Assembly (NCBI GenBank): GCA_963803805.1
Contig: CAWDOD010000007.1
Location: forward strand, 174,328 to 238,327
Length of the DNA stretch: 64,000 nucleotides
Origin: an uncultured cyanobacterium
GTDB taxonomy: Bacteria; Cyanobacteriota; Cyanobacteriia; Cyanobacteriales; CAWCAG01
Reading direction: 5' to 3'
Every line of letters begins with the position of its first letter. Positions within the stretch are counted from its first letter, which is position 1. Both the position numbers and the translations under genes were made by a program. The notes under the pieces were generated by a model. It did not search any database. It was not told where the DNA came from and saw nothing but the letters and a program-made list of their open reading frames with translations. Shown piece after piece: positions 21,140-57,965 of the stretch.

Positions 21140-21304
21140 TGTGATTTGTTCAACTAGTACTCTACCCTCTTCTCTTGTTGTAGTGAGAGATTTTATGCGA
21201 AAGAGAAGAATTGTTTACAAAAGTTGACCAAACAACAGACTTTTACCAGTGGAAGCCTGTACAATGCTCCTTGATATATTTTTAAGTGTATCTACTAGAT
21301 AAAT

Positions 21305-23032: not shown

Positions 23033-23064
23033 GAGAATTTGACTGTTTTGAGTGCGATGGCGAA

Positions 23065-23232
23065 ACCCGCCACGGATTAAAATCCATGTCTAGCAGCCTA
23101 AGTCATCTTTAAGATGACTTCCAAACGCTGTAGTCTTCCCCAAGAAAAACTGTAACAAAACTCCTAAAAATTAATCTCCTAGTCATCTTGAGATGACTTA
23201 AGTTGTTAGCCCCGAATTAATTCGCGGGCGGT
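23065..23232. repeat. Palindromic MITE/REP-like element, copy 1
   Basis: Two AGTCATCT..AGATGACT palindromes at 23101 and 23181 plus a GGATT..AATCC hairpin; homologous to 38927-39057. Confidence 0.7.
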
Positions 23233-23341
23233 ATATGAACAAATATTAAGATATCAGTTTCTCTGCATAAAAGTTGCCGCGTTTTCTAGAGAAGAAACTA
23301 GAAACCCATATTTTAATTTACATGAAAGGGAAGCTTCTACT

Positions 23342-24687
23342 ATGAGATTTAAGCACATTGCTTCTTATCTTAGCTACAGCGTGCTAACACTTGGTATTTG
23401 TTCTCTACCAATTCAAACTGCCCAAGCAGGAACTATTCATAACAATTGGAACTATGTTATAGATTCGCCCAGCGACGGTACAGAAAGAACAGGGTTTGGA
23501 TTTAACCCTACTCCTTATCGAGTTGGGGGTTCAGATAACCCCTTTGAAATGTATGGTATGTCCTTGTTGGATTTAGGCGATCGCGTCACAGTTGCCATAA
23601 CAGGTAATATGCCTTTAGGAGGGGTTGATGATCCTTGGGGATATGTCAATGACGGTAATACAGCCTGGGGAGATTTATTTTTCAACTTTACCGGAGAAGA
23701 TATTCCTACTGCTAACACACGGGAGAACCTATTTGCTGTTCGCTTTGCAGCTAATAACGAAGCCGGAGTTAGCGAACTCGGAGTTTACAAAGATATAACT
23801 CTCAAAAATGTTGCTTCAATCAACGATGGCTGGCCTACTGTTGATAGATATATCAATGCTGTTGAGGCAAAAGGCAGTGATCCTTCAATGGGAGATATAG
23901 ATATAAGAAGTGGCTATTTCGGTGAAGAAAGTTACAACGTAATTGACTCTGGTACAAAAGTAGGTGATGTTGAACTCCTTGACTTGCCAGCTTTAACTGC
24001 ATTAGGGTTAGACTTTGAAAATTTTGATGCTGCTGGTTCAGAAACCTTTGGTTTTAGTTTCGCTAAACCAGAAGGCTTTATCGGCAGTTTCATCAGCCAC
24101 ATCGTCACAGAATGTTTCAATGATGGAGTTGCCCTCAAAGGTGCTTTAACCCTTGGAGGCCCTGTTCTTCCTGGCCCAACTCCTGAACCTTGCGTAGTCA
24201 CAGACGGACAAAAAAATCCTCTGCTACCCAGCTTTATTGATGATGAAGGGTGGGCTGTATTTGAAAATGTAGAAAGTGGTCTGTGGTATGACCCTGTTGC
24301 AGAAATGGGTTTTGAGTTTCAGGCACTAGGGGAAACCCGATTTACTGTGATAGAAGACTTCCCTTGTGGTATTTCCGAAGATGATACCTTTGATGTTTAT
24401 GTAGGTTCCAAACCCTATAGGGATCTTGGCCTGATAAAAGCTTAGTTTTTGACTTCCCAGTTAAAGAATTTAAGATTACTTTTCCCCTTGAAGGTGATTA
24501 CGGGCGGGAGACTTTCCCTGTGAAACTTGACTTTGCCACTGCAACAGGAACTTTTAGAATGCGTCAAATCCCACCACCACCGACTCCTCCTGAACCAGAA
24601 AAAATACCTGAACCTGATTCTGTAATGGCAATTCTAGCTTTAAGCCTTTCCGGACTCATTTGGCGATTGAGTCGCAAGAAAGTTTAG
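23342..24687 (+). pseudogene. PEP-CTERM surface protein (N-domain XDD3-like) with a -1 frameshift at about 24430 (real or assembly indel)
   Basis: Signal peptide; adding one C at GGCC (24428-24431) extends the ORF to ...PPEPEKIPEPDSVMAILALSLSGLIWRLSRKKV*, a PEP-CTERM sorting signal ending at 24687. Confidence 0.8.
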
Positions 24688-24767
24688 GATTTTAGGTTTG
24701 TTGCATTTTAATTAGCGGAGGGAGATAGCTTGTAAGTTGGCTATCTCCCTATTAATTGTGTTTTCTA

Positions 24768-27700
24768 TCAATCGTTTCTCAACAAACAACTAGCAAAAGC
24801 CTGAGAAGTCAGTATAATTTCACCATCCGGTAATTCAAACCAACCTTGCACTTCTTGAATCGATTGATCTGAATGAGATTGCTGTGTATCACTTAATGAT
24901 GTAACCGATGTATTCAGACTATCAATACTACTACTCAATGGATCAGAAGGGTTAGAAGGTAAACCAGCCCTGCCGATGTCGATAAAGACAGAATTTTTCT
25001 CTCCATTACTTCCTACAGCACAACCTTCAGGTAAACCTTCATCTAAAAAACGATCATCTAAGGGATTAAGGCGCAGATTGTCATTAACATTGATCTCAAC
25101 AGTACCATCAATTCCTAACTCAGAACTAGCAGTAAAATCGCTTTCAGAGGTGTTAACCTTTTCAAAGAGTCTAAAACCAAAAATCCCTTTTGCTGTAGCA
25201 GTAATATTACCACCTTGACCTTGTAAAGAACTGGCAATAATATCACTATCTTCTGCAAGAATCGCAACAATAAAGTCACCAACTCTCAGGGTCATATTAC
25301 CACCGCTACCTGTACCATTCGCATTGGTCAAAATATCGCTATCCTGGCGCAGAATCACTGATTTATCTACAAAAAGTTGAATGTTACCGCCATTAGCATT
25401 AATTGTTTCTGTTGTCAGCCTTGCACCGTTGGTCATATTAACAGATTCTGCATTGACTAGTATGTCCCCTGCATTACCTGAGTTGTTACCACTAAGATTA
25501 ACTTGCCCACCATTTTCTATGTTTAACAGCTTTGTATTAATTTCAATACCTTGGGCATTACCAGAACCAGAAGAAGCAAAGACAAGACGACTAGCTTGAC
25601 CACTATTGGCTACACCACTTACTTTCACTAAGTCTGAAGCATTAACAACTAAAGTTCCGCCTTGACCATCGCTAACAGTGGATGCGGATACTTCCCCTCC
25701 ATCTTCAACCAGTAATTGACTGGTGTTAATGACAAAATTACCTGCATTGCCACCACCAAAAGTATCTGATGATAAACCACTTCTAACCTGACCATTAGGG
25801 GTAGTACCTACAACTTTTACAAACTCTGAAGCATTAATAACAACATTTCCAGCTTGTCCTTGTCCTGATGTCGAGGCAAAAATCCTTGCACCTTCTTGAA
25901 GGGTTAATTGCTTAGTATTAACTGTTAAATTTCCGGCATTTCCTGTACTTGTTGCCCCTAAAAATATGCCGCTAAAGTTAGCATTGTTAACTGGATTAAA
26001 ATCGTTACCGATCAAAGTAGCTGACTCGCTGGCATTAACAGTTATTGTCCCCCCTGTTCCTGTACCTTGACTAAAAGCAGAAACGAAAGAACCATTTTCT
26101 AGTTGCAAAGTCTTAGCTTGCATATCAATAACTCCTGCATTGCCATCACCGTTAGTGTTGACGAAAATAAAGCCTCTGTTTAAAGATATACCTTGTTCTG
26201 CGGTTAGAGTAATTTGTCCTGAATCTCCGTTACTGCCTAGGCTATTCATGTCAGCAATGTCACTATTAGCATAAATACCAGAAGTGTTTTCAATATTAAT
26301 TTCTTGAGCATCAACACTGATATTTCCTGCTGTTGCTGTACCGATTATTGCCGTTGTACCAGCAGTCCTTGCAGATAATTCTGCACCATTTTGCAAGGTA
26401 AAACTGCCACCACTACTAAGATTAATATCACCTCCTTTCAGAGTAGATGTGTCTGTATAACTCTCATTAAAAATTCCTTGAGATAATACCAAAGGCGCGT
26501 CGCTGTGGACTCGGACATTGCCTCCCAGTAATCCTCTAGCAAGAATCTCTGCATTAGTAGTAAGTGTTCCTGTTCCTAAGATAGTTACATCGCCACCATT
26601 ACCACCGTAAGTATTAAGTGGTAAACCTCCTCCTATATTTTGATCAAGGGCAGAAGCATTTATACCACCTTGCAAAGTTGTATCTCCCCGTGAATCAATC
26701 TGTATAGAACCCCCTCCCTGTACTTCTCTAGTATCTATAACTCCATTAACTGCAATTCCTCCCGGTAAGCTATTAGGAAAGAATTGATTTGTTAAAACGA
26801 CTCTACCTCCGTCACTACCAGCAAACCCAAAAGCAGTAACAATTTCTCCCGTGGTAATATTGGCATTTGCTAGAGGTGTAGAAAATCTAGGCGGTGGGTT
26901 AGCAGTAAAGAAAGAATTACCATCAATTACACTGTTGTCAGGAGTAGGAATCCCCCCTAAAGCGTTCCAATCAATGCCTGCCCGTATGTCTAAGGTTGGT
27001 CTAGCATTACCATTAATCGTCGGGACTGCTGTACCATCTGATAAATTAAAGTTTGCTAAATCACTATAGGTTGTAGTTGCGTTAATATTGTTTGTATTTC
27101 CAGGGTTAATAGAGTTATTTCCTGTTTCTAAATTATCAATTAATACATCGCCTAAAGCGACGCTACCTCCAGCTAGAATATGCAAAGAAGCACCCTGATA
27201 ATCCCCTAAAATCACATCCCCAGAAGTAATAATTATTGGATCATCAGGACTAAATAAATCTCCTAAACTCCCATCTAATTTCTCCACACGAAAATTCCCC
27301 CCACTCCAATAATGGGCATCACCACCCACTGCATTACCAGAACGCAAAGTTAAATCTCCCCCAGCAAACAAACCACTATCAGGATGATTCAGGGCAAAAA
27401 TATCCACTTTCTCATCACCCTGGACCAACAACTCTCCTCCCGCAGCAGCTACAAAAGGGTTAGTAACACTATCCCTAATCTTCACTTCGTTTGTCGCCAC
27501 TAAGTTAACATCACCGCCACCTTGTACTTCACCAGTTAAATCTAAATTCCGTCCTACCAAGGTTAAATCTTGCCCCACAAGTAACTTACCTCGGTTAACA
27601 ATTTCCGCACGGGGAACATTGTTTCCATACTGCAAACCAGGACGTATATTAACTGTTAAAAGAGGAGGTGCATCGGGATTAGTAGCACTAAATTCTCTCC

Positions 27701-28136
27701 CATTTTCTAGCAACAAACTATCAGCAGTGCTAACGAAAAAAGACCCAGCAATATCTAAACGGGCATTTTCGCCAAAGAAGACACCGTTAGGATTAATTAA
27801 GAATAAATTTGCCGTACCGTCAACCCCTAAAGTACCTAATATTTCTGAGGGATTGTTACCAGTTACGCGGGTTAATATATTGTTGATTGCTGCTGGATTT
27901 TCAAAGTAAACCCGTTGCAATTCCCCGACATTAAACTGACTGAAACTGTGAAAAAGATTAGTACCACGAATAGCGCCGCCAGTGATTAATTCTCCTGGTA
28001 GGCCCTTGATTTGGGTATTGTTGATGATTTGGGAGTTTTCTTGTCCCAAGGTTGCATCAGGGGTGATTTGGGCTTGCAGAGGAGAAGCAGAGAAGAGGGT
28101 TGTAGTGAGTAGTAATAAGGTGGTTAGTTTGGACAT
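24768..28136 (-). CDS. Filamentous haemagglutinin N-terminal domain protein (TpsA-like)
   Basis: AQITPDATL, NLFHSFSQFNV, NILTRVTG, ANLFLINPNG; Gly/Asn-rich beta-helix repeats; C-terminal ITASSELG-like and GRAGLP motifs. Confidence 0.93.
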   Translation of the reverse strand: MSKLTTLLLLTTTLFSASPLQAQITPDATLGQENSQIINNTQIKGLPGELITGGAIRGTNLFHSFSQFNVGELQRVYFENPAAINNILTRVTGNNPSEILGTLGVDGTANLFLINPNGVFFGENARLDIAGSFFVSTADSLLLENGREFSATNPDAPPLLTVNIRPGLQYGNNVPRAEIVNRGKLLVGQDLTLVGRNLDLTGEVQGGGDVNLVATNEVKIRDSVTNPFVAAAGGELLVQGDEKVDIFALNHPDSGLFAGGDLTLRSGNAVGGDAHYWSGGNFRVEKLDGSLGDLFSPDDPIIITSGDVILGDYQGASLHILAGGSVALGDVLIDNLETGNNSINPGNTNNINATTTYSDLANFNLSDGTAVPTINGNARPTLDIRAGIDWNALGGIPTPDNSVIDGNSFFTANPPPRFSTPLANANITTGEIVTAFGFAGSDGGRVVLTNQFFPNSLPGGIAVNGVIDTREVQGGGSIQIDSRGDTTLQGGINASALDQNIGGGLPLNTYGGNGGDVTILGTGTLTTNAEILARGLLGGNVRVHSDAPLVLSQGIFNESYTDTSTLKGGDINLSSGGSFTLQNGAELSARTAGTTAIIGTATAGNISVDAQEINIENTSGIYANSDIADMNSLGSNGDSGQITLTAEQGISLNRGFIFVNTNGDGNAGVIDMQAKTLQLENGSFVSAFSQGTGTGGTITVNASESATLIGNDFNPVNNANFSGIFLGATSTGNAGNLTVNTKQLTLQEGARIFASTSGQGQAGNVVINASEFVKVVGTTPNGQVRSGLSSDTFGGGNAGNFVINTSQLLVEDGGEVSASTVSDGQGGTLVVNASDLVKVSGVANSGQASRLVFASSGSGNAQGIEINTKLLNIENGGQVNLSGNNSGNAGDILVNAESVNMTNGARLTTETINANGGNIQLFVDKSVILRQDSDILTNANGTGSGGNMTLRVGDFIVAILAEDSDIIASSLQGQGGNITATAKGIFGFRLFEKVNTSESDFTASSELGIDGTVEINVNDNLRLNPLDDRFLDEGLPEGCAVGSNGEKNSVFIDIGRAGLPSNPSDPLSSSIDSLNTSVTSLSDTQQSHSDQSIQEVQGWFELPDGEIILTSQAFASCLLRND

Positions 28137-28270: not shown

Positions 28271-28412
28271 GTAGGGGCGACCCGCCTACGTTGTTTTTGT
28301 ACCTCACAAACCAATAAAATTGGGTCGCCCTTTCGGGGTTTATGGGTAGGGAGGGCGACCCAAGATGATTTGTTTTTGGGTTGCCAAAGTTATGTCAACG
28401 GGTCGCCCCTAC
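28271..28412. repeat. 142-bp REPIN-like element (left of RAYT)
   Basis: Bounded by inverted GTAGGGGCGACCCG / CGGGTCGCCCCTAC, with an internal inverted pair TTGGGTCGCCCT / AGGGCGACCCAA. Confidence 0.85.
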
Positions 28413-28942
28413 GGATTGGGATGGGCGATCGCTTGGATATTCATTGAATCCGTTGCCCAGTCCAGAGGATTATTGACAATGTAAGCTCGGATTTTTTCTA
28501 AAGCAAATTCGTCGGGAATAATTCGGTCATAAAAGTTTCTTTGCCATACTTGTAACTGGGAATTTCTGTTCGCAATTCTCCATTTTTTGGTAACTTGAGA
28601 CTTGAACTGCCCAATGATGGCGCTTACAGAATTAGCTGTGGGGCCATTTCTTATTTGAGAAATAGGTTTAGGGAGAGGAAACTTTCTATTAATAATCATG
28701 ATGCCATGAAAATGATTGGGCATAATAACATAGCTATCTAACTCAATGTAAGAACGTACTTTAGGAGTTATAAGCCATTCATGTTCTACAATTTTGCCAA
28801 GGGGAGAAAGTTGTACTAATCCGGCCACAATTTTGCTAAGAGTGCATTCTTTGCGGTAGGTACAAATAGTAATAAAGTAAGCTCCCGATTGAGTATAATC
28901 ATATCCCGGTAAACGACGGGAAGAACGATGGTAGTTAGACAC
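28409..28942 (-). CDS. REP-associated tyrosine (Y1/HUH) transposase, RAYT-like
   Basis: RLPGYDYTQSGAYFITICT, MPNHFHGI (HUH), WQRNFYDRII, IRAYIVNNP. Its stop codon lies inside the flanking REP. Confidence 0.9.
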   Translation of the reverse strand: MSNYHRSSRRLPGYDYTQSGAYFITICTYRKECTLSKIVAGLVQLSPLGKIVEHEWLITPKVRSYIELDSYVIMPNHFHGIMIINRKFPLPKPISQIRNGPTANSVSAIIGQFKSQVTKKWRIANRNSQLQVWQRNFYDRIIPDEFALEKIRAYIVNNPLDWATDSMNIQAIAHPNP

Positions 28943-29296: not shown

Positions 29297-32200
29297 TTAA
29301 ACTCCAGGAACACGGATATAGCGATCAGGATTACTCGCTGTGTAATCAACAATTCGGTGTAGTGTACCTGCCCCACCACCATCAAAATTAGTGTTGTAGT
29401 GTGATTCTGAAAGAACAACTCGTTTGACTCCATTTTGGTAGTAAGTTTTCTCAACTACAGCTACATGATTTTGACCATTCCTTGTCCATTGTGCAATATC
29501 ACCTGGTTGAGGATCGCTAACGATATACGCTCCATTGGATAGCTGATAGTGCCATTGGTTTGCATTGCCTGACATTGAGTTTAAAGCGGCAGGATTACCT
29601 CCTAATTCTTTCACGCGCCCGTGCGCGTACCAAGTACAATTACCTTCAGTTCTACTGTATCCATCAACTAAATTTGAGCCATAACTTGCCTGGGAAAAAA
29701 TATTTCCTGTTGTGTAAAACTGAGGACGAGCTTTGAAATAGTTTACTCCTTGCTGAGTAAGTAGAGGTGTTTTAACAGTACCTCCGCCTCCACCTCCACT
29801 ATCTCCGCTACCTTCACTTATATAATAAGCAGCAACATAACCCACCTGACCATTAGCTTCAATCTCATACCAATCAGTCCGATTACCTGGATAATAAGCA
29901 CCACCAGAAACTTGCTTGCGAATTGTCACCGCAGTTCCTTTAGGTAACTTGCCAATAATAGTAGAACCACTAACAGAAGGTTTGTTGCGGAAATTGAGAG
30001 AAACATTACCTACATTAGCATTAACATGACCTTTCTTCGTAGTATTGCCAGGATCGGAACTGCCACCGGGTTGAATAGGAGGCTTAGAATTGGGATAGCC
30101 GAAAATGTAAGCACTGGGAACCCAATAAGCTTTACCATCACGCCAGTAACGATACCAGAGAGCATCAGGCTTATCAGTCCAAATATCATTAACAGACTCC
30201 CCGTAAGTCCAGCCATCGAAATGCAAAGTCTTTTTGTAAGGTTCAGCTAAACCACTGCGGTCTTCATGCTTAGGGCTATTACGCAAAGCTACGCCAATAC
30301 TAGGCCCTACCCAACCGGAGAAATTCTCCGCACGAAAATCAGTTGGTTGAGAAACAATATCGACATAGTAGGCAGCGACAAAACCTTGCTGCCCATCTAC
30401 CTCGACTTTGTACCACTCATCACTTAAACCATTCTCGTAACTTTTTCCTTTGACAGACTCCAAAACCTTCAAAGTTTTTCCTTTAGGAAGCTGGCCAATC
30501 AGATTATCTCCTCTTACTTCAGGAGAAGTTCGGAAATTGAGAGGGTCATTTCCTACTTTAGAATTAACCACACCAGATTTAGGTGGTGCAGGCTGAGGTT
30601 GAGGCTTGGGACTAGGGGGAGGGTTGGAACCAGTTGCGCTACCTGTGAAGAATTTCTCAATGCCACGGGCAATAGCATGACCCGCTTTTTCTACATTGCC
30701 ACGGCTCATCCCTGGTGCATCAATAAACAAAGATTCTGTGAGAACGGCAGGAACCCCTAAAGGAGCATTGCGTAATACAGATAAATCTTTTGTTTTTACT
30801 CCCCGATTAGGAATCTCGTTATCAGGAAAGACAGCATCTAGTTCACTGTTGACAGCTTTAGCTAGTTCAGAATCAGCACTGGGTGCATTGGGATGAGAAT
30901 AAACTTCGTGGCCTTGGGCATCCTTGTTAAAGGCATTGAGATGCAAAGAAACAAACAGATCGTATCCAGCAGCCCGTTGACCAATCTGTGCTAAGGATAT
31001 AGCTTCATCAAGGATTTTTACCTCTGCACCGAGTTGGCGTAGGTGTTCAGCAACAATTTTTGCTTGGTGTAAGTTTTCTGTTGCTTCATTTGTACCATTA
31101 CCACCAGCACCAGGATCGAACCCTGTATCAGTAATACCATGGCCTGGATCGAGGATAATCTTTTTACCAGCGAGGGTATTAGTATTTGGAACTGGAAAGT
31201 TTTGGAAAACAGCACGTTCCCAAGGAGTAGTTGGTTCTTTCCCGATAGGAGGAGTTTGCTGCAATTTGGGGTTGTATACTTCTGGGTCAACGGTTCTTGC
31301 CAAACTAACTGCCGCAGCAATGTTTAGCAATCCTGCCCCTGTTTCTAAATCTTCTCCTAACTCGTTTATATCTGCTGCTGTAGATTTGAGGATGTCAATT
31401 ACTTGGCGATAATTCAAATTAGGGTTCGCAGCCCAAACTTGAGAGGCAGCCCCCGTTACCTTCGCGGTAGCAACAGAAGTACCAGCCATTGTCCCTACAC
31501 CATTACCAACAGTAGATACGACTGGAGTTTCTAAGTTGCCACCATTAGCAACAATGTCCAACCCTTCGCCATGATTTGAATATTCAGCCCGATCAAAGCC
31601 TTGCCAAACAGAAGTTTCACCACTAATTTGTTCTGCTGAACCTACGGTAATAACGTTATCAAAATGCTGAGAAGCTTGTCCCAAAGCTGACATAACTTCA
31701 CCCTCATTTCCTGCGGCAACGGCAACGAGAACATTGTTTTGACGGGCATATTCTAAAGCTGCCATTTCTGAGGGGGTAAACTCATAACGGGTGGTTTCTA
31801 CACCATCAATATCAATTTGAGTTAAATCAAAGCTTAGATTTGCGATTCCATTAGGTTGCCCCGACTCCCTAGCTGCATCTACAAACTCCATTAAAGATTC
31901 CGCCCATTCACCTGAACCAACAGCCCTTCCTAACCAAAGGGGTGCATCATCATTGATACCATCAATCCCAATATCATTATCATTCTGGGCTGCGACAATA
32001 CCTAAAACATGAGTACCATGTTCATTGCCTTCTCCTGGGGTTAGCAAAGGGTTAGCATCGTTGGCAATCTTATCTGTTCCTAAACTAATTTTTTCATAGT
32101 CTAAGTCAGGATTATCACCACTAAATCCAGTATCAATAAAGCCAATCAGAGGTTGGTCTTCAACAGGGAAATTATAATCGGTAACAGGAGGATCTACTTG

Positions 32201-33097
32201 AGGGTTAGCATATTCTAAAATAGCTTCCCCTAAATCGCTGTCTCGCCACTCTTTCCCCTCTTCAATGACATTATCTAGTAATTCAGCTTCTCCGGTTGCC
32301 CCACGTACTTGGAAAATTAAATCGTTGTAATCCCTATCAGAGTTATCATCAACCCGCCAGTCTTCCATCACAAAGGTGTTGCCATCCCCCGTTACATCAG
32401 CAATTTGTCCTAAATGGAAAGCATCATCAGGGTTGGCTGTAGCCACAGAGAAAAGAGGACGCAAATTACCTTTGTCAGGATTATCGAGAAACTCTTCTAC
32501 AGTGCCGTTAGGAATAAGCATAAAACCGAAGCGATCGCCCGGCTTCATTTTTACAGGATCTCCTTGTTGATAAATACCAGAGTTACGATCAGCTTCTCCT
32601 AATTCCCCGGAAAATTTTGCCCCTTCAGTAGCATCAGAAATAACAACATGACCTAATTCAGAATCACTCAAAGCTCGGTTAGCAGCTTCAAAACTAAAGT
32701 CTTCCGACTCTGGGTTCAACCCTTCTAAACTAAAGATGGCTAACTCTCCTTCGTAACCACCACCATCAAAGAGGAAGTCAACGGTTACTTCCCCAGTGTC
32801 CCCAACAGTAAAAACCCCTGAGTCGAAGTTGGGGGAAGAGATATCAGCTATTTCAGCTATTTGATCTGTTTCGAGTTCATCAAAGAAGCTAATCGGCTCT
32901 AATTCTTCATCGCTAAAGTCTTGGTCTATTTCTGCTAAAGGATCAATATCTTCTGGTAGATCAACGTCGAAGAGGGCTAAGTCAACCCCGTCATCACCGC
33001 CATCTAATAGCCCACTGGGGGTAAGAATTGGTTCTAAAATAAAGGCTTGAATTTTGGATTTGCCAGAACGAGAAGAGTTATTTTCAGGTAGTGCCAT
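29297..33097 (-). CDS. Multidomain secreted hydrolase: DUF4114-like, S8 subtilase, Amidase_3, SH3-like x3, CHAP
   Basis: FVMEDWR..SDRDYNDLIFQV (DUF4114-like); S8 triad IDTG / EHGTHV / GTSVA; amidase DPGHG, SLHLNA, LTESLF; SH3b-like LNFR..P....WY; CHAP GNCTWY and HVAVVE. Confidence 0.85.
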   Translation of the reverse strand: MALPENNSSRSGKSKIQAFILEPILTPSGLLDGGDDGVDLALFDVDLPEDIDPLAEIDQDFSDEELEPISFFDELETDQIAEIADISSPNFDSGVFTVGDTGEVTVDFLFDGGGYEGELAIFSLEGLNPESEDFSFEAANRALSDSELGHVVISDATEGAKFSGELGEADRNSGIYQQGDPVKMKPGDRFGFMLIPNGTVEEFLDNPDKGNLRPLFSVATANPDDAFHLGQIADVTGDGNTFVMEDWRVDDNSDRDYNDLIFQVRGATGEAELLDNVIEEGKEWRDSDLGEAILEYANPQVDPPVTDYNFPVEDQPLIGFIDTGFSGDNPDLDYEKISLGTDKIANDANPLLTPGEGNEHGTHVLGIVAAQNDNDIGIDGINDDAPLWLGRAVGSGEWAESLMEFVDAARESGQPNGIANLSFDLTQIDIDGVETTRYEFTPSEMAALEYARQNNVLVAVAAGNEGEVMSALGQASQHFDNVITVGSAEQISGETSVWQGFDRAEYSNHGEGLDIVANGGNLETPVVSTVGNGVGTMAGTSVATAKVTGAASQVWAANPNLNYRQVIDILKSTAADINELGEDLETGAGLLNIAAAVSLARTVDPEVYNPKLQQTPPIGKEPTTPWERAVFQNFPVPNTNTLAGKKIILDPGHGITDTGFDPGAGGNGTNEATENLHQAKIVAEHLRQLGAEVKILDEAISLAQIGQRAAGYDLFVSLHLNAFNKDAQGHEVYSHPNAPSADSELAKAVNSELDAVFPDNEIPNRGVKTKDLSVLRNAPLGVPAVLTESLFIDAPGMSRGNVEKAGHAIARGIEKFFTGSATGSNPPPSPKPQPQPAPPKSGVVNSKVGNDPLNFRTSPEVRGDNLIGQLPKGKTLKVLESVKGKSYENGLSDEWYKVEVDGQQGFVAAYYVDIVSQPTDFRAENFSGWVGPSIGVALRNSPKHEDRSGLAEPYKKTLHFDGWTYGESVNDIWTDKPDALWYRYWRDGKAYWVPSAYIFGYPNSKPPIQPGGSSDPGNTTKKGHVNANVGNVSLNFRNKPSVSGSTIIGKLPKGTAVTIRKQVSGGAYYPGNRTDWYEIEANGQVGYVAAYYISEGSGDSGGGGGGTVKTPLLTQQGVNYFKARPQFYTTGNIFSQASYGSNLVDGYSRTEGNCTWYAHGRVKELGGNPAALNSMSGNANQWHYQLSNGAYIVSDPQPGDIAQWTRNGQNHVAVVEKTYYQNGVKRVVLSESHYNTNFDGGGAGTLHRIVDYTASNPDRYIRVPGV

Positions 33098-33344
33098 TTT
33101 AATTATCTGGTAAGAAAAATCAAATTTGCTGTCTTACCTTCTTCTCAGGGTGATAAACCACTATTTATGCACTGAGATACATTTCTTTACAATCAGAGCC
33201 TTTAACCCATAACTTCAGTAAAAGTATAGTTTTGTAACAAAATCGGTAATTGTGCATAAAAGACTAGGGGTCAGACCTGAGAACAAATAGAAGGCTCAAC
33301 TAATTCCATAACTAACCATCTGTTTTCTCTTGCCATAACCAACC

Positions 33345-34538
33345 ATGTTCAAACAAAAACCAGGGCAGCACTTTTTCTTACTTTTCCCCAACATCTTCAA
33401 CTTCAAAGGGGGTATACAAGTTTACTCTCGCTTTCTTTTAGAAACTCTCCAGGATTTATATCCTGAAGCTAGTTATGAAGTTTTTCTGAAATACGACAGT
33501 AAATTCCCTCAAAACCATTCCTTTCTGCCGCAAACTAACTTTCACTGCTTAGGTAAATTTCCTCGTTGGTGGCAAAGTTTCTTTTTATTACTACAAACAG
33601 TTATTCTTGGTACTTTACAACGCCCAACCTTAGTTATTGCCACCCACATTAACTATGGAATAGCCTGTTATTGCCTGAAAAAATTAACTGGCACTCCCTA
33701 TTGGGTTGTCATTCATGGTTTGGAGGGGTGGAACATAGAAAATCCTCTGTTGCAAAGGGTTTTACAATCTACTGATAAAACCATTGCGGTAAGTGAGTAT
33801 ACCAGGAAACGTTTGCTTAAAGAACAACCGCTTTCCCCCCAACAAGTAGCTATTTTACCAAACACCTTCGATCCTACACAATTTCGCCCTCAACCAAAAC
33901 CAGCTTACCTGCAACGGCGTTATGGTTTAACCCCAGATCAACCTGTAATTCTGACGGTAACTCGCTTAGGGACTTCAGCAACCTACAAAGGTTACGAACA
34001 AGTACTTCAGGCTTTAGTTAAGCTACGTCAACAAATCCCCAACTTACATTACCTTTTAGGTGGAAAAGGGGATGATCTTCCCCGAATACACAGTTTAGTA
34101 CAGCGACTCGATTTAACTGACTGTGTAACTTTGACAGGATTTATTCCTGATGAAGAATTATGTGACCATTACAATCTTTGTGATGTCTTTGCTTTACCTA
34201 GTCGAGGTGAAGGTTTTGGCATTGTCTATTTAGAAGCCCTTGCCTGTGGTAAGCCCGTATTAGCAGGGTGCGGGGATGGGGCAGTAGATCCTTTAGGGCA
34301 AGGAGAATTAGGTTGTTTGGTGAACCCAAATGATGTTGCAGAAATTGCGGCTAAACTCCAAGAAATTTTAGAAAAAACTTACCCTAATACTTTGCTATTT
34401 TCTCCCCATCTACTCCGGGAAAAAACTATCAGACGTTATGGTGTAGCTCAATTTTGTCATACCTTAGCTAATTTGGCTGACTTTGAGACATCGGTAGCAA
34501 ATCCCCGTCCCTACCCATCATTGATAACTGGTAACTAA
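33345..34538 (+). CDS. GT4 (family 1-type, GT-B) glycosyltransferase
   Basis: KGGIQVY, ILTVTRL...YKGYEQV, FALPSRGEGFGIVYLEALACGKPV. Confidence 0.92.
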   Translation: MFKQKPGQHFFLLFPNIFNFKGGIQVYSRFLLETLQDLYPEASYEVFLKYDSKFPQNHSFLPQTNFHCLGKFPRWWQSFFLLLQTVILGTLQRPTLVIATHINYGIACYCLKKLTGTPYWVVIHGLEGWNIENPLLQRVLQSTDKTIAVSEYTRKRLLKEQPLSPQQVAILPNTFDPTQFRPQPKPAYLQRRYGLTPDQPVILTVTRLGTSATYKGYEQVLQALVKLRQQIPNLHYLLGGKGDDLPRIHSLVQRLDLTDCVTLTGFIPDEELCDHYNLCDVFALPSRGEGFGIVYLEALACGKPVLAGCGDGAVDPLGQGELGCLVNPNDVAEIAAKLQEILEKTYPNTLLFSPHLLREKTIRRYGVAQFCHTLANLADFETSVANPRPYPSLITGN

Positions 34539-34539
34539 A

Positions 34540-35973
34540 ATGGCTGATTATAGTAACTGGATTTGCCCTGATATTAGACCCTACTGGAAACTAGTGAGGG
34601 AAAAGAATTCTCAGCAATTAGTCCTTGCTGCAATTCAGGGGGAAGCTAAACATTTTCTCTCTGCAACTGAAGCCTATGCTTTACGATACTTTGTCGGCAA
34701 ACTTACTGTAGTCCAAGTACAAAAGAACTGCAACAAGAGGCTGCAAACTGCTGCTTCCCCTAACTTGGTAACAGAATTAATAGCAAAACTGATTAAGCTT
34801 GAGGTTATTTCCTTGGAAAGTGATTCGGAGTTGGCAAAGCCTCAAAGTCCCCAATCACATCAACTTAAACCCTGTTTACAATGGGTTAAACCTGCCCCAG
34901 AATATTGGATTTTGCGTAACCCGGAAGATGTTACCTTTCTCCAGTTTGATAACCGTAGTAAGGAAGCGGTTGAACAAATTGGGCAAATACCTCCCCAGGA
35001 GATTGTTCATCGGTTTGACATCACTCCCCAAGAGTTACAATACCTGCTGCAAATACTGGCAGCAACGGGGATGTTAGCTGGAACCCATCCTGGTAAACCG
35101 AAAAAAGGTAAGTTTCATCCTATGCAACTACTATTTTTTAAGCTTAAACTCTTCAATCCCGATCCTTGGTTGACTAATGGGGTTAAATACTTGCAGTGGA
35201 TTTGGACTTCCGCTTTCAGTTTCATACTTTGCATTTTCTTAGGATTATCAGGGGCAGTAGGATTTAATCAACGGCGGGAAATTCTCCACCAAGGGCAGGA
35301 ATTGTGGTTAAGATCAGGAACTTCCTTGCTCTTCTGGTTTGCAGTTCTTTCTTTAACAGTGGTAGCTTTGCATGAACTTGGCCACGCTTTTACCCTTAAG
35401 CATTATGGGGGCATTGTTCCGGAAGTTGGCTTACTCTTCATGTGCCTCTTTCCTGCTGCCTATACCAACACCAGTGATTCCTACTGCTTGCCTAAATTTA
35501 AGCGTGTTTTAGTTGTGGGGGCGGGGATAATTGTACAAGTTACTTTAGCTGCGGTGGGTTTGTTATTCTGGCACATTTCCCTTCCTGGAACCTGGTTGCA
35601 TACTGGTAGCTTTCTCCTTATGGCTGGGGCTTTATTCACTGTCACCATTAATCTTAATCCTTTAGCTAAGTTCGACGGCTATTACCTCGCCGTTGCAGCT
35701 ACAGGCATCAACAACCTCCGCAGCCGTGCCTTTGGTTTGTATGGTAACTTGCTCCGGTTGCAACCGATACAAGAAACCTGGCGCGATCGCCTGATTTTAG
35801 CAGTCTATGCCCCTTTTAGTCTTGTTTATATTTGGTTTGTGTTCGGTTTCCTTTTTTATCGCTTAGGAGACTGGATTTTAAGCAATGTACCCATGACAGC
35901 CCTGATTTTGCTAATTATCTGGGCAATTTATTTTTACTTTCCTCGCTCCTCCACTGCAAAATCAGAGAGCTAG
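34540..35973 (+). CDS. M50 (site-2 protease fold) membrane protein with two N-terminal PqqD/RRE-like domains
   Basis: HELGH at 35371-35385, NLNPLAKFDG, multiple TM helices. Two repeats of about 75 aa with a beta-beta-beta/helix-helix-helix pattern ending LIKLEVI and LAATGML. Confidence 0.8.
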   Translation: MADYSNWICPDIRPYWKLVREKNSQQLVLAAIQGEAKHFLSATEAYALRYFVGKLTVVQVQKNCNKRLQTAASPNLVTELIAKLIKLEVISLESDSELAKPQSPQSHQLKPCLQWVKPAPEYWILRNPEDVTFLQFDNRSKEAVEQIGQIPPQEIVHRFDITPQELQYLLQILAATGMLAGTHPGKPKKGKFHPMQLLFFKLKLFNPDPWLTNGVKYLQWIWTSAFSFILCIFLGLSGAVGFNQRREILHQGQELWLRSGTSLLFWFAVLSLTVVALHELGHAFTLKHYGGIVPEVGLLFMCLFPAAYTNTSDSYCLPKFKRVLVVGAGIIVQVTLAAVGLLFWHISLPGTWLHTGSFLLMAGALFTVTINLNPLAKFDGYYLAVAATGINNLRSRAFGLYGNLLRLQPIQETWRDRLILAVYAPFSLVYIWFVFGFLFYRLGDWILSNVPMTALILLIIWAIYFYFPRSSTAKSES

Positions 35974-35982
35974 AAACAGGTA

Positions 35983-36003
35983 TTACCTATTACCCATTAC
36001 CTA
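35983..36003. repeat. STRR-type heptamer array (TTACCTA x3, one variant)
   Basis: TTACCTA TTACCCA TTACCTA immediately before the HlyD start codon. Confidence 0.7.
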
Positions 36004-36005
36004 TC

Positions 36006-37568
36006 ATGAATAACCCAAACTTGCCTCAAAACACACCAAAGTTTCGTGTTGTCCCCTCTAAAACGACCAAAAAACCACAACCCCAAACTCCTCCTCCAGA
36101 ACCTCAAGATAAACAAGTTGCAGAAGCAGTTAATTCTAATCAGGGTAGGAAAAAATTAGTTATTCTAGGGGGCATCTGCTTGGGATTAGGAATTCTTGCT
36201 TTGATTCCCATACCTAATTATGTTACTGGCAAAGCGGAAATAACCTCCCGTGTTAATGCCCGACAACGCTTGACAATGCCCGTTGATGGCATTGTGGAAA
36301 TTAAGGTAGAAAGTAACGAAGAAGTGCAAAAAGGAGATGTTATTGCTACAATTGATAGTCCTGAATTAGATAAAGAAATTGCCCAAGCAAACCGTTCCCT
36401 CAAGGAAGCTAAAGGGGAACTAACGGCAGCTAAAAATCAATTAAGTTTGAGTAAAAGCCGCTTAAATCTCGCCCAGCAAGAAGAAGCGATCGCAACTTCT
36501 CAAGTAACTAGGGAACATCGACAGTATGGTGATGCCCCTAAGTTACGTCAATTTGATTATGAACAAGCCGGCATACAGGAGGAGATTACAGGGGTACAGA
36601 GTGAGATAGTTGGTATTAACAGTCAAGTTGTTGCTACTAAAAATAAAATTGTCGGATTGCAAGGAGAAATTGCCGGTTTAACCCAACAGCTAAGTAATGT
36701 AGAAGAACGTATCCAAGCGAGAGAATATGTGTCAACTCAAGGAGGCTTAGCAAGATTAGATCAAGAAACGGCAGCTTTGAAGATACAAAGAACTGAGTTA
36801 AATAACGATATCAGCCAAAAACGCCACCAAATCATCAACCATGAACAAGAAATTGTCCAAATTCAAAGTCAAATTAAACAACGGCAAAGTGTAATTGCTA
36901 GCAAGTCCAAAGATATTAATTCCCTATCTGAACGAAGCAAGGATGTTAATCACGAATTGGGAGATGATTTGAATAGTTATGAAAATAGTTTAACTCTTAA
37001 AGCTGCTCAAAGAGACACTGCAACCAAAGATTTTGAGGCAACAGTAGCCCAGGTGAATAGTAAAACTCAGTTGGTAGAACAGTGGGAAGATGAGGTGGCA
37101 AGGTTAGAGGCACAAAAGAATAATTTGACCTTAATTGCCGAAACTCCAGGGACTGTAATTACCCAAGAGATAGACTTAACCAGTAATAGTAGCCTCCAAG
37201 CAGGGGAAGATATTTTAGAAATAGCAGATTTGAAGCTTTTAGAGGCTAAGGTTGCAGTACGTCAAGAAGATCATAACTTGGTTCAGGAAACCCAAACTGT
37301 TACCTTCCAACCCAAAGATGCTAAGAGTTCCCGTTACAAAGCTAAAGTGCAGGAGAAAGATTCTATCATCATCGTCGAAAATCCTGGAGAGAGTCCCAAG
37401 TTAGGAGTAAGAATCTTGATTGAGAATGATAATAAGTTACTGTTACCAGGGGGTGAAGGTTATGCCCATATTAAAACTGGCAAGATGCCTATTTATAAAA
37501 AAGTTAACCATGAGTTGAGTAAGTTAATTGATTTGGGTAAATATTTCCCTTGGTTAACTGGTGAATGA
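36006..37568 (+). CDS. HlyD-family membrane fusion (periplasmic adaptor) protein
   Basis: Single TM helix, lipoyl-like VQKGDVIATIDSPEL, long coiled coil, AETPGTVIT, GEDILEIAD, LLPGGEGYAHI. ATG at 36006 preferred. Confidence 0.88.
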   Translation: MNNPNLPQNTPKFRVVPSKTTKKPQPQTPPPEPQDKQVAEAVNSNQGRKKLVILGGICLGLGILALIPIPNYVTGKAEITSRVNARQRLTMPVDGIVEIKVESNEEVQKGDVIATIDSPELDKEIAQANRSLKEAKGELTAAKNQLSLSKSRLNLAQQEEAIATSQVTREHRQYGDAPKLRQFDYEQAGIQEEITGVQSEIVGINSQVVATKNKIVGLQGEIAGLTQQLSNVEERIQAREYVSTQGGLARLDQETAALKIQRTELNNDISQKRHQIINHEQEIVQIQSQIKQRQSVIASKSKDINSLSERSKDVNHELGDDLNSYENSLTLKAAQRDTATKDFEATVAQVNSKTQLVEQWEDEVARLEAQKNNLTLIAETPGTVITQEIDLTSNSSLQAGEDILEIADLKLLEAKVAVRQEDHNLVQETQTVTFQPKDAKSSRYKAKVQEKDSIIIVENPGESPKLGVRILIENDNKLLLPGGEGYAHIKTGKMPIYKKVNHELSKLIDLGKYFPWLTGE

Positions 37569-38122: not shown

Positions 38123-38587
38123 ATGGTTGCTCATTATTATTATTATTGCTGTTCCCTTCCCTTAGAATCTGGTAGTATTATAAAACCGGGAAATTGGGGA
38201 AGAATAATGAAAAAATATACTCCTCACACATCGCCAAACATTTTGACTTTGACAAGAGAGCTAATATTTGAACAAGTAAGGTTTAAATATTTCTCAGGAA
38301 AGCCAAGCCGATTTGAGTCGATTTTTATCTGTCCTGATGAAGATACTATTATTAATTTTAGAAATACTTCTAATAGAGTATTAGATATAATTTACAAAGT
38401 AGAATTGGTTGATAGTGACGAACCCCAGCACAGGGGAGACTATAATAGAGCGGCTGACATTAGATCAGATGATAACTTTAAATCTATAGAAGAAAAAGCA
38501 AAAGATTACTGGCAGGGCAACGATATTTCAAATGTAGAACTAGTTACAACAAGTAGAATAAGAATAGTTGAAATGACAAGAGAATAG
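38123..38587 (+). CDS. DUF2441-like protein (possible ADP-ribosyltransferase fold)
   Basis: RELIFEQVRFKYFSGKPSRFESIFIC resembles DUF2441; AT-rich sequence. Confidence 0.55.
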   Translation: MVAHYYYYCCSLPLESGSIIKPGNWGRIMKKYTPHTSPNILTLTRELIFEQVRFKYFSGKPSRFESIFICPDEDTIINFRNTSNRVLDIIYKVELVDSDEPQHRGDYNRAADIRSDDNFKSIEEKAKDYWQGNDISNVELVTTSRIRIVEMTRE

Positions 38588-39235: not shown

Positions 39236-41377
39236 TTATCCCTTCTCTTCCTTCTTTAAACGTCGCCACCAAGCCCTAACTAAACTAATTTCCTCATAAC
39301 TATAAAAATCCCCGATCGCCTCGCGAATCGCTTTCAAAGAATCTGCTCCCACTTTTTCAATCCCTACCATAATTACCTCTTGCTTCTCCTTCACCACCAA
39401 ACGCTGCAAATCCACAGGCTGATTTAACTCAATTAACTCACATAAATGGTTAACAATTGTCCGGGGGGTAAAACCTCTTTTTTTCGCTATTTCTTCCACC
39501 TCTAAACCCTGTTGAAATAAACCTAATGTATTCATTTGTGTATCAGTAGGCAGGGCTTCCGGGGGTTGCTGTTCCTGACAAAAGGCGCGAATCTCTGAGA
39601 CAAAGCGATCGCCATATTGCTTTAGCTTGTAATCCCCCACACCAGAAATCTTGCCAAACTCCGGTAAGGATTGGGGTTGCTTTTGCGCCATTAATTTTAA
39701 AGTAGAATCCCCAAAAACCACATAGGGAGGAATACCTTGATGATCGGCAATTTGTTTCCTTAATCGACGCAAGCGCCCAAATAGCAACTCCGCTTCCATT
39801 GTGCTGGGATTAGCATCTGTAAGCTCCTTGGAGGCTGGTTTTTTGGTGATGGCAATGTTTACCTGGCGTTGACTCCGCAACACCTCCCAACTACGCTTAT
39901 TTAACTTGAGGATGCGATAACCGTCGGTGGTTTGGTTAACTAAGCCTTGATGGAGAAGCGATCGCGCTAACATTTTCCAAGCATCAGCCGTCTTATCTTT
40001 ACCAATACCGTAGGTAGAAAGGAGGTGATGTCCGTATTGCTGCACCTTTTGTTTTTTGGAACCCCGCAACACATCAATAATGTGGTTTGTACCAAACTTT
40101 TCTCGACACCGGGCTACACAGGAAAGAAATTTTTGTGCTTCAGTCGTCCAATTTTCAATAGGTTTGGGGTTGCGACAGTTATCGCAGTTGCCACAATCGC
40201 CTTTGAACCTTTCTCCAAAATAACCTAAAACAATCGTGCGGCGACAGTCTGTACCTTCAGCATAATCAATAATCTGACTTAGTTGTTGTCGCGACACCCT
40301 CTGTTCATTGGGGTCTGGTTTTTGAGCAATCAGATAATCTATTCTGGGAATATCTCCAGGGCTGTAGAAAAAGAGACAATCTGCTGGTTCACCATCCCTA
40401 CCTGCCCTGCCGGATTCTTGATAATAACCCTCTAAATTTCTGGGTAGATCGTAGTGGATGACAAAGCGCACATCTGGTTTGTCAATACCCATACCAAAGG
40501 CGATGGTTGCCACCATAATTCTCACATCGTCCCGAATAAAGCGGGTTTGGTTGCTTGCGCGAGCCTCAGATTGCATTCCTGCATGGTAGGGCAGGGCTTC
40601 AATACCATCACTTTGTAAACGGTTAGCTGTTTCTTCTACTTGACGACGACTGAGACAATAAATTATTCCTGAACCTTGGCGACTTTGCACTGCTTTTAAT
40701 AACTGCCCATAGCTATTGCGCTGTTTCGGTTGTACTTCATAATAAAGGTTAGGACGATCAAAACTAGCAAGATGGATGCTAGGTTCTTTTAAGCCAAGTT
40801 GCTGGACAATATCTTCTTTTACTCGCTTTGTTGCTGTGGCGGTGAGGGCAATAACAGGAATTTTGGGGTAACGCTTTCTCAAAAGCCGAAGCTGGCGGTA
40901 TTCTGGCCGAAAATCATGACCCCATTCGGAAACGCAATGAGCTTCATCAATGGCAAATGCAGAGATACCTAATTGCATAGATACTAAATCCAAAAAAGGC
41001 AGAAACCTCTCCCCCAATAACCTTTCCGGGGCAACATAAAGTAACTTGATCTTCCCTGCCAAAATTTCCTGTTCTCGCTCTCGTATTTCCCTACTGCTTA
41101 AACTACTATTAAGGAAAGTTGCTCCAATGCCGTTGTCATACAAGGTATCTACTTGGTCTTGCATCAAAGCAATTAGGGGAGAAACCACCACACTTAAACC
41201 AGGTTTCAACAAGGCTGGTAACTGGAAACAAAGAGACTTCCCCCCCCCTGTGGGCATAATCACCAGTAAATCTCGATCTTGCAGTGCTTCTAGGACAATT
41301 TGACGCTGCCCTGGACGAAAATTCTCGTAACCGAAGTAATGTTTGAGGTCTTGCTCCAGAGATTGCAACTGGTACAT
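39236..41377 (-). CDS. recQ: ATP-dependent DNA helicase RecQ
   Basis: [43 protein letters not shown] and HRDC regions. Confidence 0.97.
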
Positions 41378-52160: not shown

Positions 52161-52218
52161 GACTAGAGAATGAAGTGATCGCCTCAGTCTTAAAGAATAA
52201 GCAATATTTTTATAACAG

Positions 52219-52252
52219 GTCAGTGAAGAGTCTTTTCTTTCACTGACTTTTT
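52219..52252 (+). terminator. Probable intrinsic terminator after RTX gene copy 1
   Basis: 9-bp stem GTCAGTGAA / TTCACTGAC followed by TTTTT. Confidence 0.65.
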
Positions 52253-52435
52253 CTTGCTTCTTACTTTTCATATCTCTAGCGAAATCGTATAAACACGATG
52301 CTTTGTAGAATTATCTCCTCATGCAAAATCAATTTACTAAGTATAATTTTTTACTTTCTTAAACAAAAATAAATTGTTAATGTTATAAATACTCACTAAT
52401 ATGTAACAATTACTTAAATTATTTAAGATACCTAT

Positions 52436-54178: not shown

Positions 54179-54197
54179 ATTCGTTATTATCTTATCA

Positions 54198-54857
54198 ATG
54201 ACAAAAGTATTGCAACTTGGTCAACAACAAATACCCTTAGAACAACTTCCTTTTTTATTAGATAAGTATGAGCTTCTGCCTGCCTTGGCAGAAGAGATGA
54301 TTATAGATCAGGCGATCGCTTCAATAGATTTAACACCAGAGGAACAGCCCCAGGGGGTAAGAGAGGAACGGGGAGGCTTACGTAGAGCGAAAATTCATAA
54401 GTTTAAACAGCTTACCTGGGGACATGAACTTAAATCTCATTTCCTAAAATACAGAAGAAAGCTAGATCGGGCAACCTACTATCTTCTACGTCATCGCGAG
54501 GAGAAGATTATTCAAGAACTCTATTTTCGCCTCCAAGAAAAAGAGCAATCTTTTGCAGAACTAGCGAGGGAATACTCTCAAGGCAGTGAAGCAAAAAGGG
54601 GGGGTTTGGTTAATGGGGTGCAGTTGAGTACATTGCACCCTACTTTAGCTGCAATGCTATCAAGTAGCGAACCAGGAGAAATTTTACCAGTGACGAAGTT
54701 AGATGATTGGTACATTATTGTTAGCTTGCAAGAGTTTATTCCTGCCCAATTTAATGAAACCCTGCAACAGCAATTACTAGAGCAACTTTTTCAAGAGTGG
54801 CTAGAATTTCAGTTGTCGCTTATTAATGTAAGAAATCTTATTTCTGTTGATGCCTGA
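54198..54857 (+). CDS. PpiC/parvulin-type peptidyl-prolyl isomerase associated with T1SS
   Basis: ELYFRLQEKEQSFAELAREYSQGSEAKRGG...LHP.LA..L...PGEI. Confidence 0.85.
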   Translation: MTKVLQLGQQQIPLEQLPFLLDKYELLPALAEEMIIDQAIASIDLTPEEQPQGVREERGGLRRAKIHKFKQLTWGHELKSHFLKYRRKLDRATYYLLRHREEKIIQELYFRLQEKEQSFAELAREYSQGSEAKRGGLVNGVQLSTLHPTLAAMLSSSEPGEILPVTKLDDWYIIVSLQEFIPAQFNETLQQQLLEQLFQEWLEFQLSLINVRNLISVDA

Positions 54858-54928
54858 CTATTGCTTTTTCATTTTTGACTCTCTAAAAAATGGCAGACTA
54901 TTAAATTAATTAAAATAAGCTGTAGTTC

Positions 54929-54956
54929 TTACCTATTACCTATTACCTGTTACCTA
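54929..54956. repeat. STRR-type heptamer array (TTACCTA x4, one variant)
   Basis: TTACCTA TTACCTA TTACCTG TTACCTA. Confidence 0.8.
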
Positions 54957-54997
54957 TTAGATCACCTATGGGGGTGATCTAATATACCTGATAGCTT

Positions 54998-57913: not shown

Positions 57914-57965
57914 TTGTAAAATTCAGAACTAAAAATTACCACCTATTACCTATTGCTTGAAAATA

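Follow-up and report, generated by a model that had tools for sequence, protein, structure and literature searches.

We describe here a putative leader-guided envelope cassette encoded in the genome of an uncultured cyanobacterium. The window, that is, the whole stretch of DNA analyzed (64,000 nucleotides), carries at positions 29297 to 37568 a gene for a large multidomain hydrolase, hereafter the cargo, whose N-terminus bears a short conserved motif, the leader. Divergent from it, an operon encodes a GT4 glycosyltransferase, a site-2-protease-like (S2P) intramembrane metalloprotease, designated M50, with domains of the RRE type (recognition elements of peptides that are made by ribosomes and modified after translation, RiPPs), and a HlyD-type periplasmic adaptor (table 1). 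The M50 gene starts 1 bp past the stop codon of the GT4 gene, and the ATG of the HlyD gene lies 32 bp past the M50 stop codon; this start, at position 36006, is backed by the alignment of homologues. Promoter-like hexamers in the divergent spacer (33202-33230 on the + strand and 33123-33096 on the - strand) are no commoner than in shuffled sequence. The gene order, open reading frames (ORFs) and spacings are those given in the initial annotation, which was made without database searches, and a Pfam scan agrees with it that the operon contains no ATP-binding cassette (ABC) transporter gene.

Table 1. Features of the cassette and their positions in the window
Feature	Position	Strand	Remarks
Cargo gene	29297..33097	-	1266 aa; leader, acidic linker, DUF4114, subtilase S8, Amidase_3, 2x SH3_3, CHAP
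Acidic linker after leader, probably disordered	32813..33010	-	cargo residues ~30-95
Leader core FILEPILTPSG	33011..33043	-	cargo residues 19-29
Divergent intergenic region between cargo gene and GT4-M50-HlyD operon	33098..33344	.	247 bp
GT4 glycosyltransferase, accessory, non-core	33345..34538	+	
Tandem-RRE site-2-protease-like intramembrane metalloprotease (M50-like)	34540..35973	+	477 aa
RRE-like domain 1	34585..34797	+	M50-like residues 16-86, beta3-alpha3
RRE-like domain 2	34879..35064	+	M50-like residues 114-175
HELGH zinc-binding/catalytic motif	35371..35385	+	M50-like residues 278-282
Partner motif NLNPLAKFDG	35650-35679	+	M50-like residues 371-380
HlyD-type periplasmic adaptor	36006..37568	+	520 aa

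The M50 protein is recognized only weakly by Pfam (19.6 bits to the M50 model). Its best NCBIfam match is the daptide peptidase family daptide_HExxH (NF041824; 129 bits, under the cut-off of 300), and its match to the epipeptide protease family YydH/LiaK (NF058609) is weak (42 bits for a cut-off of 225). The residues H278, E279, H282 and N371-x-N373...F378-D379-G380 are invariant among 44 homologues, which argues that protease activity is under selection. An AlphaFold2 model (mean pLDDT 78) places two beta3-alpha3 modules, corresponding to residues 16-86 and 114-175, before a helical membrane core. The top Foldseek match is ThcOx (5lq4; 216 aligned columns), whose N-terminus we take to be a tandem RRE. 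Next come SpoIVFB in complex with pro-sigmaK and the S2P of Methanocaldococcus jannaschii (MjS2P), with further matches to the lasso peptide B1 protein TbiB1 bound to a leader peptide and to the RRE-containing TruD and CteB. The model, the structural matches and the invariant residues together bear out the description of this protein as a tandem RRE joined to an M50 protease: two RRE folds and an intact site-2-protease core are predicted. Relatives carry one to three RRE copies. Those with a single copy lack RRE1, their matches beginning near residue 104, and keep the second module. RRE2, retained in all relatives, probably binds the leader. In some relatives (L008, L014, L026, L030 and L096), proteins of ~570-640 residues, a third RRE-like repeat is present at the N-terminus.

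The adaptor matches the Pfam families HlyD_D23 and HlyD_3. According to its AlphaFold2 model (pLDDT 83), it comprises a disordered cytoplasmic tail (residues 1-48), one transmembrane helix (50-65), a lipoyl domain, a beta-barrel and a very long alpha-hairpin of ~125 + 120 residues. Foldseek ranks EmrA first (E = 1.7e-16), followed by MacA and the EmrAB-TolC and MacAB-TolC assemblies; from these fold matches, we consider the protein to be an adaptor of the genuine TolC-docking type. A candidate outer channel, a 562-residue OEP (TolC-type) protein, is encoded on another contig of the same genome (C4). The cytoplasmic tail contains a conserved motif, L-K-V-V-P-P, which reads FRVVPS in this protein (residues 14-19, window 36045-36062) and could, speculatively, serve as a strand-like ligand of one of the RRE domains. 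Pfam detected no GAF domain in the adaptor or its neighbors, nor is such a domain a conserved feature of the cyanobacterial loci.

The cargo combines DUF4114 (residues 184-266), Peptidase_S8 (315-589), Amidase_3 (647-813), two SH3_3 and a CHAP domain (1150-1231). The S8 motifs DTG, HGTH and GTSVA can be read in its translation, as can the Cys (GNCTWYA) and His (NHVAVV) motifs of CHAP. Its N-terminus reads MALPENNSSRSGKSKIQA-FILEPILTPSG-LLDGGDDG..., so that a basic segment precedes the motif and an acidic tract follows it, as the initial annotation had pointed out. The most hydrophobic 11-residue window in this region is IQAFILEPILT (mean Kyte-Doolittle value 1.49), and because it holds an internal Glu and Pro we do not consider it a Sec h-region. 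There is no RR motif of a Tat signal in the N-terminus, nor any Pfam match to RTX repeats (HemolysinCabind) in the protein, which ends with the CHAP domain. Hydropathy and Pfam thus uphold the view that the cargo lacks both a Sec signal and RTX repeats.

The leader core also occurs in 39 other large proteins, 17-64 residues from their start, with the consensus F-[IV]-L-E-x-[ILM]-x-T-P-S-[GA]-h-h-D. Over the 80 residues past the motif, the median net charge is -24 (40 homologues). When the 60-residue leader was used as a query in a word-based search, nine proteins were matched. The two glycines after the motif, considered as a possible double-glycine cleavage site, are not conserved: at the two positions past h-h-D, Gly is found in 20/39 and 12/39 sequences, and we therefore rejected a double-glycine site of the type cleaved by peptidase-containing ABC transporters (PCATs). 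The string EPILTPS was found in no paper by our literature search, and the literature on DUF4114 and DUF4347 gave no functional lead. In the genome under study the motif is found twice, both times on a large protein, so that this genome holds no small precursor ORF carrying it. The second leader gene, on contig C9 (49767-58002), begins with MTSSKKRLQVHILEPILTPSG... and DUF4114 and ends after 375 residues. It is followed by an opposite-strand 303-residue transposase-like ORF and then by a 1901-residue frame that begins inside an S8 domain and runs on as a very long coiled coil. The arrangement suggests that an insertion has interrupted a cargo gene.

We analyzed the conservation of this organization in two sets: 57 cyanobacterial loci with a close relative of the protease, obtained from a scan of one genome per species, and 401 genomes spread over the cyanobacterial phylum. 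A HlyD gene follows the M50 gene in almost all of the 57 loci. A gene combining the leader, DUF4114 and S8 lies near M50, at a median distance of 2 kb; of the 20 loci flanked by 8 kb or more of sequence on each side, 14 contain one. When the neighboring ORFs were clustered, the only recurrent families besides M50 were HlyD, the cargo and GT4, the latter in nine loci. Neither ABC transporters nor ATPases form a recurrent family in the 10 kb around M50, in keeping with the composition of the operon in the window, and the loci share neither a small ORF nor a modifying enzyme.

Among the 401 genomes, 28 or 29 contain a strong M50 match. The extended leader pattern, searched at the DNA level as F-x-L-E-x-h-x-T-P-S-[GA]-h-h-D, occurs in 12 genomes belonging to 10 genera, and all 12 carry M50 (Fisher's exact test, p ~1e-15, computed with no phylogenetic correction); the reversed pattern, used as a control, has 0 matches. 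A shorter DNA pattern, LEPILTPS, gave the same picture with ~4 chance matches, as predicted by its controls, and was replaced by the longer one. The check set when the system was first proposed, whether the leader co-occurs with the cassette, therefore has a positive outcome. Leader genes scattered on other contigs still track the presence of M50.

Next to M50 proteins with only 38-47% identity to that of the window, the leader takes variant forms such as FILERIITPSA, FILEKIVTPSA, FALDNIITPST, LEQILTPSP and LERLNTPSP, and closer relatives carry FILEPMYTPSG, FILEPIYTPSG, FVLEQILTPSA and similar motifs. Judging from these sequences, the leader diverges in step with M50. Several cargo genes may share one genome: eight leader genes are spread over seven contigs in one case (G190) and five are present in another (G344), compared with one to three M50 genes. 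The cargo proteins range from 950 to >3000 residues. They share a common front consisting of the leader, the acidic linker, DUF4114 and S8, followed by variable C-terminal modules: CHAP, M23, Amidase_3, SH3, LysM, ricin-type lectin, FG-GAP and P-domain. At locus L097, the neighbor carrying the leader FILERIITPSA is a 1559-residue adhesin-like protein with dockerin, Ig-like, cadherin-like and beta-propeller domains, and the gene downstream shows a weak PEP-CTERM match at its end.

The GT4 gene behaves differently from these components. The 1-bp gap that separates it from the protease gene suggests co-translation, and the initial annotation had made it part of the system, as the enzyme glycosylating the cargo. 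We found no support for this. GT4 is adjacent to M50 in ~9-10 of the 57 loci (about one in six) and in varying positions, and its orthologues (48-65% identity) occur in 41 of the 401 genomes, 31 of which are devoid of M50. We consequently dropped the role of dedicated cargo glycosyltransferase from the core of the system; GT4 is an occasional accessory neighbor.

The protease and the adaptor are frequently parts of a single protein. In at least 10 cyanobacterial loci from three genera, among them L011, L013, L015, L022, L027, L029, L035, L041 and L049, they form one ORF of 940-996 residues in which the transmembrane helix of the adaptor is kept. Coleofasciculus, Geitlerinema and Potamolinea, as well as many metagenome clusters, encode such fusions of ~920-996 residues (P0134-P0142 among them). 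A set of 1.84 billion representative proteins, searched with a profile, yielded 11,221 related clusters, 1,850 of them at E <= 1e-30. Nine of the 11 best clusters are 920-963 residues long and correspond to M50-HlyD fusions, and Pfam confirms the presence of M50 plus HlyD within single polypeptides.

Outside the cyanobacteria, a Rhizobium relative is also an M50-HlyD fusion, matching NF041824 with 183 bits. Its operon also includes one gene for an OEP (TolC-type) protein and two further HlyD genes, encodes no ABC transporter or ATPase, and is divergent from a gene for a 1613-residue repeat protein starting with ...ELEPRIVFDAA. At a planctomycete locus (L058), the M50-HlyD fusion gene is flanked by a GAF-HlyD gene on one side and a short HlyD gene on the other, as checked with Pfam. 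The giant neighbors at two Phycisphaerales loci start with ...LEERILMSAS (L059) and ...LEDRILLSAT (L064), and these leaders score 16.9 and 18.6 bits, respectively, against the LEPR-XLL model NF012209 (24 positions, cut-off 17 bits). The leader in the window likewise resembles LEPR-XLL motifs, with a short h-L-E-x-R/x-h-h motif 20-50 residues from the start of giant proteins lacking a Sec signal. However, its core continues with T-P-S-[GA]-h-h-D, and its cargoes are a DUF4114-S8-hydrolase family and not giant adhesins. Neither the window leader nor a second cyanobacterial leader matched NF012209 at E values up to 10, and we do not assign them to LEPR-XLL. In a 2026 preprint, LEPRxLL domains are reported at the start of giant Chlorobi proteins, for which an ordinary type I secretion system (T1SS) is assumed. 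The cyanobacterial tag seems to form its own branch of the LEPR-XLL leader idea, one that may be homologous.

The closest systems in print are the daptide peptidase MpaP and a locus described by Kamneva, Poudel and Ward (2015). MpaP, an intramembrane S2P with a fused RRE, is stated to remove the leader of daptide precursors carrying the motif ELExMEAP, and daptide clusters pair such RRE-S2P proteins with ABC transporters (Ren et al. 2023; doi 10.1101/2023.03.08.531785). Like MpaP, the prototype of NF041824, the cyanobacterial protein has an N-terminal RRE fused to an intramembrane HExxH protease, and the downstream Asp motif (D379) is also present. By our own comparison, ELExMEAP resembles the L-E-x-[ILM]-x-T-P segment of the cyanobacterial leader. 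The differences are the score well below the family cut-off, the two RREs, the HlyD adaptor as a partner, often fused, and the size of the substrates, those of MpaP being short peptides. In addition, none of the components of daptide clusters, that is, short precursors, aminotransferase, dehydrogenase, methyltransferase and ABC transporter, is conserved in the 57 loci. The YydH/LiaK epipeptide metalloproteases similarly are intramembrane HExxH proteases involved in peptide maturation, but the radical-SAM and ABC context of that family is missing here.

The locus of Kamneva and colleagues, characterized by a secondary SecA_DEAD and related to type I secretion, is conserved in Planctomycetes, Verrucomicrobia, Proteobacteria, Nitrospirae and Chlorobi. 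Its genes encode a GAF-HlyD protein, a HlyD protein with weak similarity to M50, the secondary SecA_DEAD, another HlyD and sometimes an OEP. The authors suggested that the M50 protein may be a membrane pore and SecA_DEAD the ATPase; the paper names no substrate, no RRE and no cyanobacteria (Kamneva et al. 2015; PMC4452313). The locus shares with the cyanobacterial cassette a weakly M50-like membrane protein next or joined to HlyD and the absence of an ABC transporter (PMC4452313), and the Rhizobium and planctomycete relatives are loci of this type. In contrast, the cassette in the window has no second SecA and no GAF-HlyD, its M50 and HlyD proteins are separate, its RRE is doubled, and its cargo is a hydrolase family with a leader of its own. 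This genome lacks a second SecA-like motor: it is 97% complete and contains a single SecA_DEAD match, in a 952-residue frame.

T1SSs of the PCAT type consist of an ABC transporter fused to a C39 peptidase, a HlyD adaptor and TolC. The cassette is comparable in that an N-terminal leader would be recognized and removed at the inner membrane, and in that a HlyD adaptor and a TolC-type outer channel would take part. Unlike a PCAT system, it has no ABC transporter, no C39 domain and no conserved double glycine, and its peptidase is an intramembrane metalloprotease. With regard to T1SSs in general, the HlyD-type membrane fusion protein is present, but a dedicated ABC transporter and a C-terminal signal or RTX repeats are not. 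A literature search returned no paper on a site-2 protease combined with HlyD and nothing relevant on the combination of M50, HlyD and PqqD, and the cassette is not annotated as such in any of the sources compared. The cyanobacterial cassette is thus a variant of a barely known kind, split or fused, with a doubled RRE and without SecA_DEAD and GAF.

Altogether, these data lead us to propose, with a probability of about 0.6, that the locus is the cyanobacterial form of a widespread envelope cassette in which an RRE site-2 zinc protease, working with or fused to a HlyD-type adaptor, carries out leader-guided processing and export. The large hydrolase would be made in the cytoplasm without a Sec signal, with its basic N-terminus, leader core and long acidic linker. 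A cytoplasmic RRE, most likely RRE2, would bind the leader core as MpaP is proposed to read ELExMEAP, and the HELGH/D379 site would cut the leader off. The very long hairpin of the adaptor would connect the complex in the inner membrane with a TolC-type channel whose gene lies elsewhere, such as the one on contig C4, and the cargo would leave the cell or reach the wall and outer layers. One machine may serve several cargo genes per genome. We infer leader binding, cleavage and export in this scheme, and likewise its independence from an ABC transporter or ATPase, its inner-membrane channel and its energy supply. The cargoes look like a family of secreted bacteriolytic or wall-remodeling enzymes, and the multiple copies with swapped heads make us lean toward secreted bacteriolytic enzymes. 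The core of the scheme had already been put forward in the initial annotation: an RRE-M50 protein that reads the leader and works with HlyD and a remote TolC with no linked ABC transporter. This core finds support in the co-occurrence, the M50-HlyD fusions, the TolC-type gene in the Rhizobium operon and the daptide precedent; the part given to GT4 does not, and neither does cleavage at a double glycine.

Several observations weigh against this proposal. A leader gene is absent within 10 kb of M50 in six of the 20 well-flanked loci. The strict leader pattern is missing from 16 or 17 M50-positive genomes, and variant leaders lie next to M50 in only some of these. The probability calculated for the co-occurrence ignores shared ancestry. 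A subgroup of loci with single-RRE proteins (L091-L093, L097 and L098) has no recognizable HlyD beside M50. No linked ABC gene, SecA paralogue or other ATPase offers an energy source and, to our knowledge, S2P proteases do not translocate proteins. Finally, no RNA runs contain this sequence, which matches only metagenome DNA runs, the genome being assembled from a sediment metagenome. We put forward only tentatively, as a rather doubtful extension, that the RRE-S2P, HlyD and TolC proteins form a whole one-step machine that needs no ABC transporter, here even without a SecA-like motor, and delivers interchangeable wall-degrading effectors by means of their tag.

The question of the motor is also where the best-surviving alternative departs from our proposal. 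The RRE-S2P could be a leader peptidase only, the cargo being moved by a pump or motor encoded elsewhere, for example an unlinked ABC or PCAT exporter or the housekeeping SecA/SecYEG. In that case export would follow an ordinary type I-like or Sec-assisted pathway with an unusual peptidase and would not be pump-less. S2P proteases being unknown as transporters is in line with this, as is the association of RRE-S2P with ABC transporters in daptide clusters. The genome does possess ABC exporters, one of them 17 kb away, and one normal SecA, and since the homologous locus in other phyla carries a SecA_DEAD ATPase, a motor seems to be needed. However, the 57 cyanobacterial loci share no ABC or ATPase gene in the 10 kb around M50, the Rhizobium operon, with its outer membrane factor, two HlyD proteins and M50-HlyD fusion, encodes neither, and the ABC-HlyD pair found nearby is accompanied by RTX substrates of its own. 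We regard a peptidase-only role as unlikely, although it deserves serious consideration.

The domain composition of the cargoes is compatible with a role that involves no secretion at all. Amidase_3, CHAP, M23, SH3 and LysM act on peptidoglycan, and the cassette is found mainly in filamentous cyanobacteria, as judged by record titles. The protease might therefore trim the leader to activate or release hydrolases that serve the remodeling of the cell's own wall, for instance in filament breakage or cell separation, with the HlyD-like protein as a periplasmic scaffold. The M50 subgroup devoid of an adjacent HlyD also speaks for this reading. Yet wall enzymes must still cross the inner membrane and the cargo has neither a Sec nor a Tat signal. 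Moreover, the fold and the very long hairpin of the adaptor match those of TolC-docking adaptors, a TolC-type gene is present in the homologous Rhizobium operon, and multiple cargo copies with swapped heads are more suggestive of secreted effectors. We consider this possibility quite improbable. It is more improbable still that M50 and HlyD process and export an unrecognized small RiPP-like peptide, the hydrolase gene being merely a frequent neighbor: the usual partners of RRE domains are small precursor peptides and the family that M50 matches best is that of a daptide peptidase, but the conserved motif is restricted to large proteins in this genome, the 57 loci conserve neither a small ORF nor a modifying enzyme, and leader genes follow the presence of M50 even from other contigs.

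The surroundings of the cassette contain further mobility- and secretion-related genes. Directly downstream of the cargo gene lies an ORF of the Y1 (IS200-like) transposase type (28409-28942). On the 3' side of the operon, a DUF2441 protein (38123-38587) and a RecQ helicase (39236-41377, - strand) are encoded, neither of which is conserved with the cassette. Several secretion routes are clustered at 18473-28136. This region encodes a TPR-CHAT protein (18473-21139, - strand), a TpsB-type transporter (21305-23032), an XDD3 exosortase-dependent surface protein (23342-24445) and a 1122-residue TpsA-type protein with a TPS domain (24768-28136, - strand). A separate canonical T1SS is located ~17 kb downstream of the cassette (50409-59571). 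It consists of tandem RTX genes (50409-52160 and 52436-54178), a peptidyl-prolyl isomerase gene, a gene for a 971-residue exporter with cNMP-binding, C39-like and ABC domains (54998-57913) and a HlyD gene (58180-59571). We rejected the cNMP-C39-ABC and HlyD pair as the missing pump of the cassette: its own RTX genes adjoin it, and no ABC gene is conserved near M50 elsewhere.

In print, the cassette exists only as a locus of unknown role (PMC4452313); of the versions found, the cyanobacterial one, with two genes and a tagged cargo, is the simplest. Since its tag is short and of high specificity (0 control matches in 401 genomes), the idea can be tested directly. If the proposal is correct, RREs would address proteins of >1000 residues to an envelope machine, beyond their role in guiding the chemistry of small peptides, and a function and substrates could be assigned to a membrane-protease/adaptor cassette known from thousands of protein clusters. 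The cassette would also mark out a family of secreted, unannotated peptidoglycan hydrolases in cyanobacteria that form mats or filaments; these enzymes may act in bacterial competition or filament remodeling.

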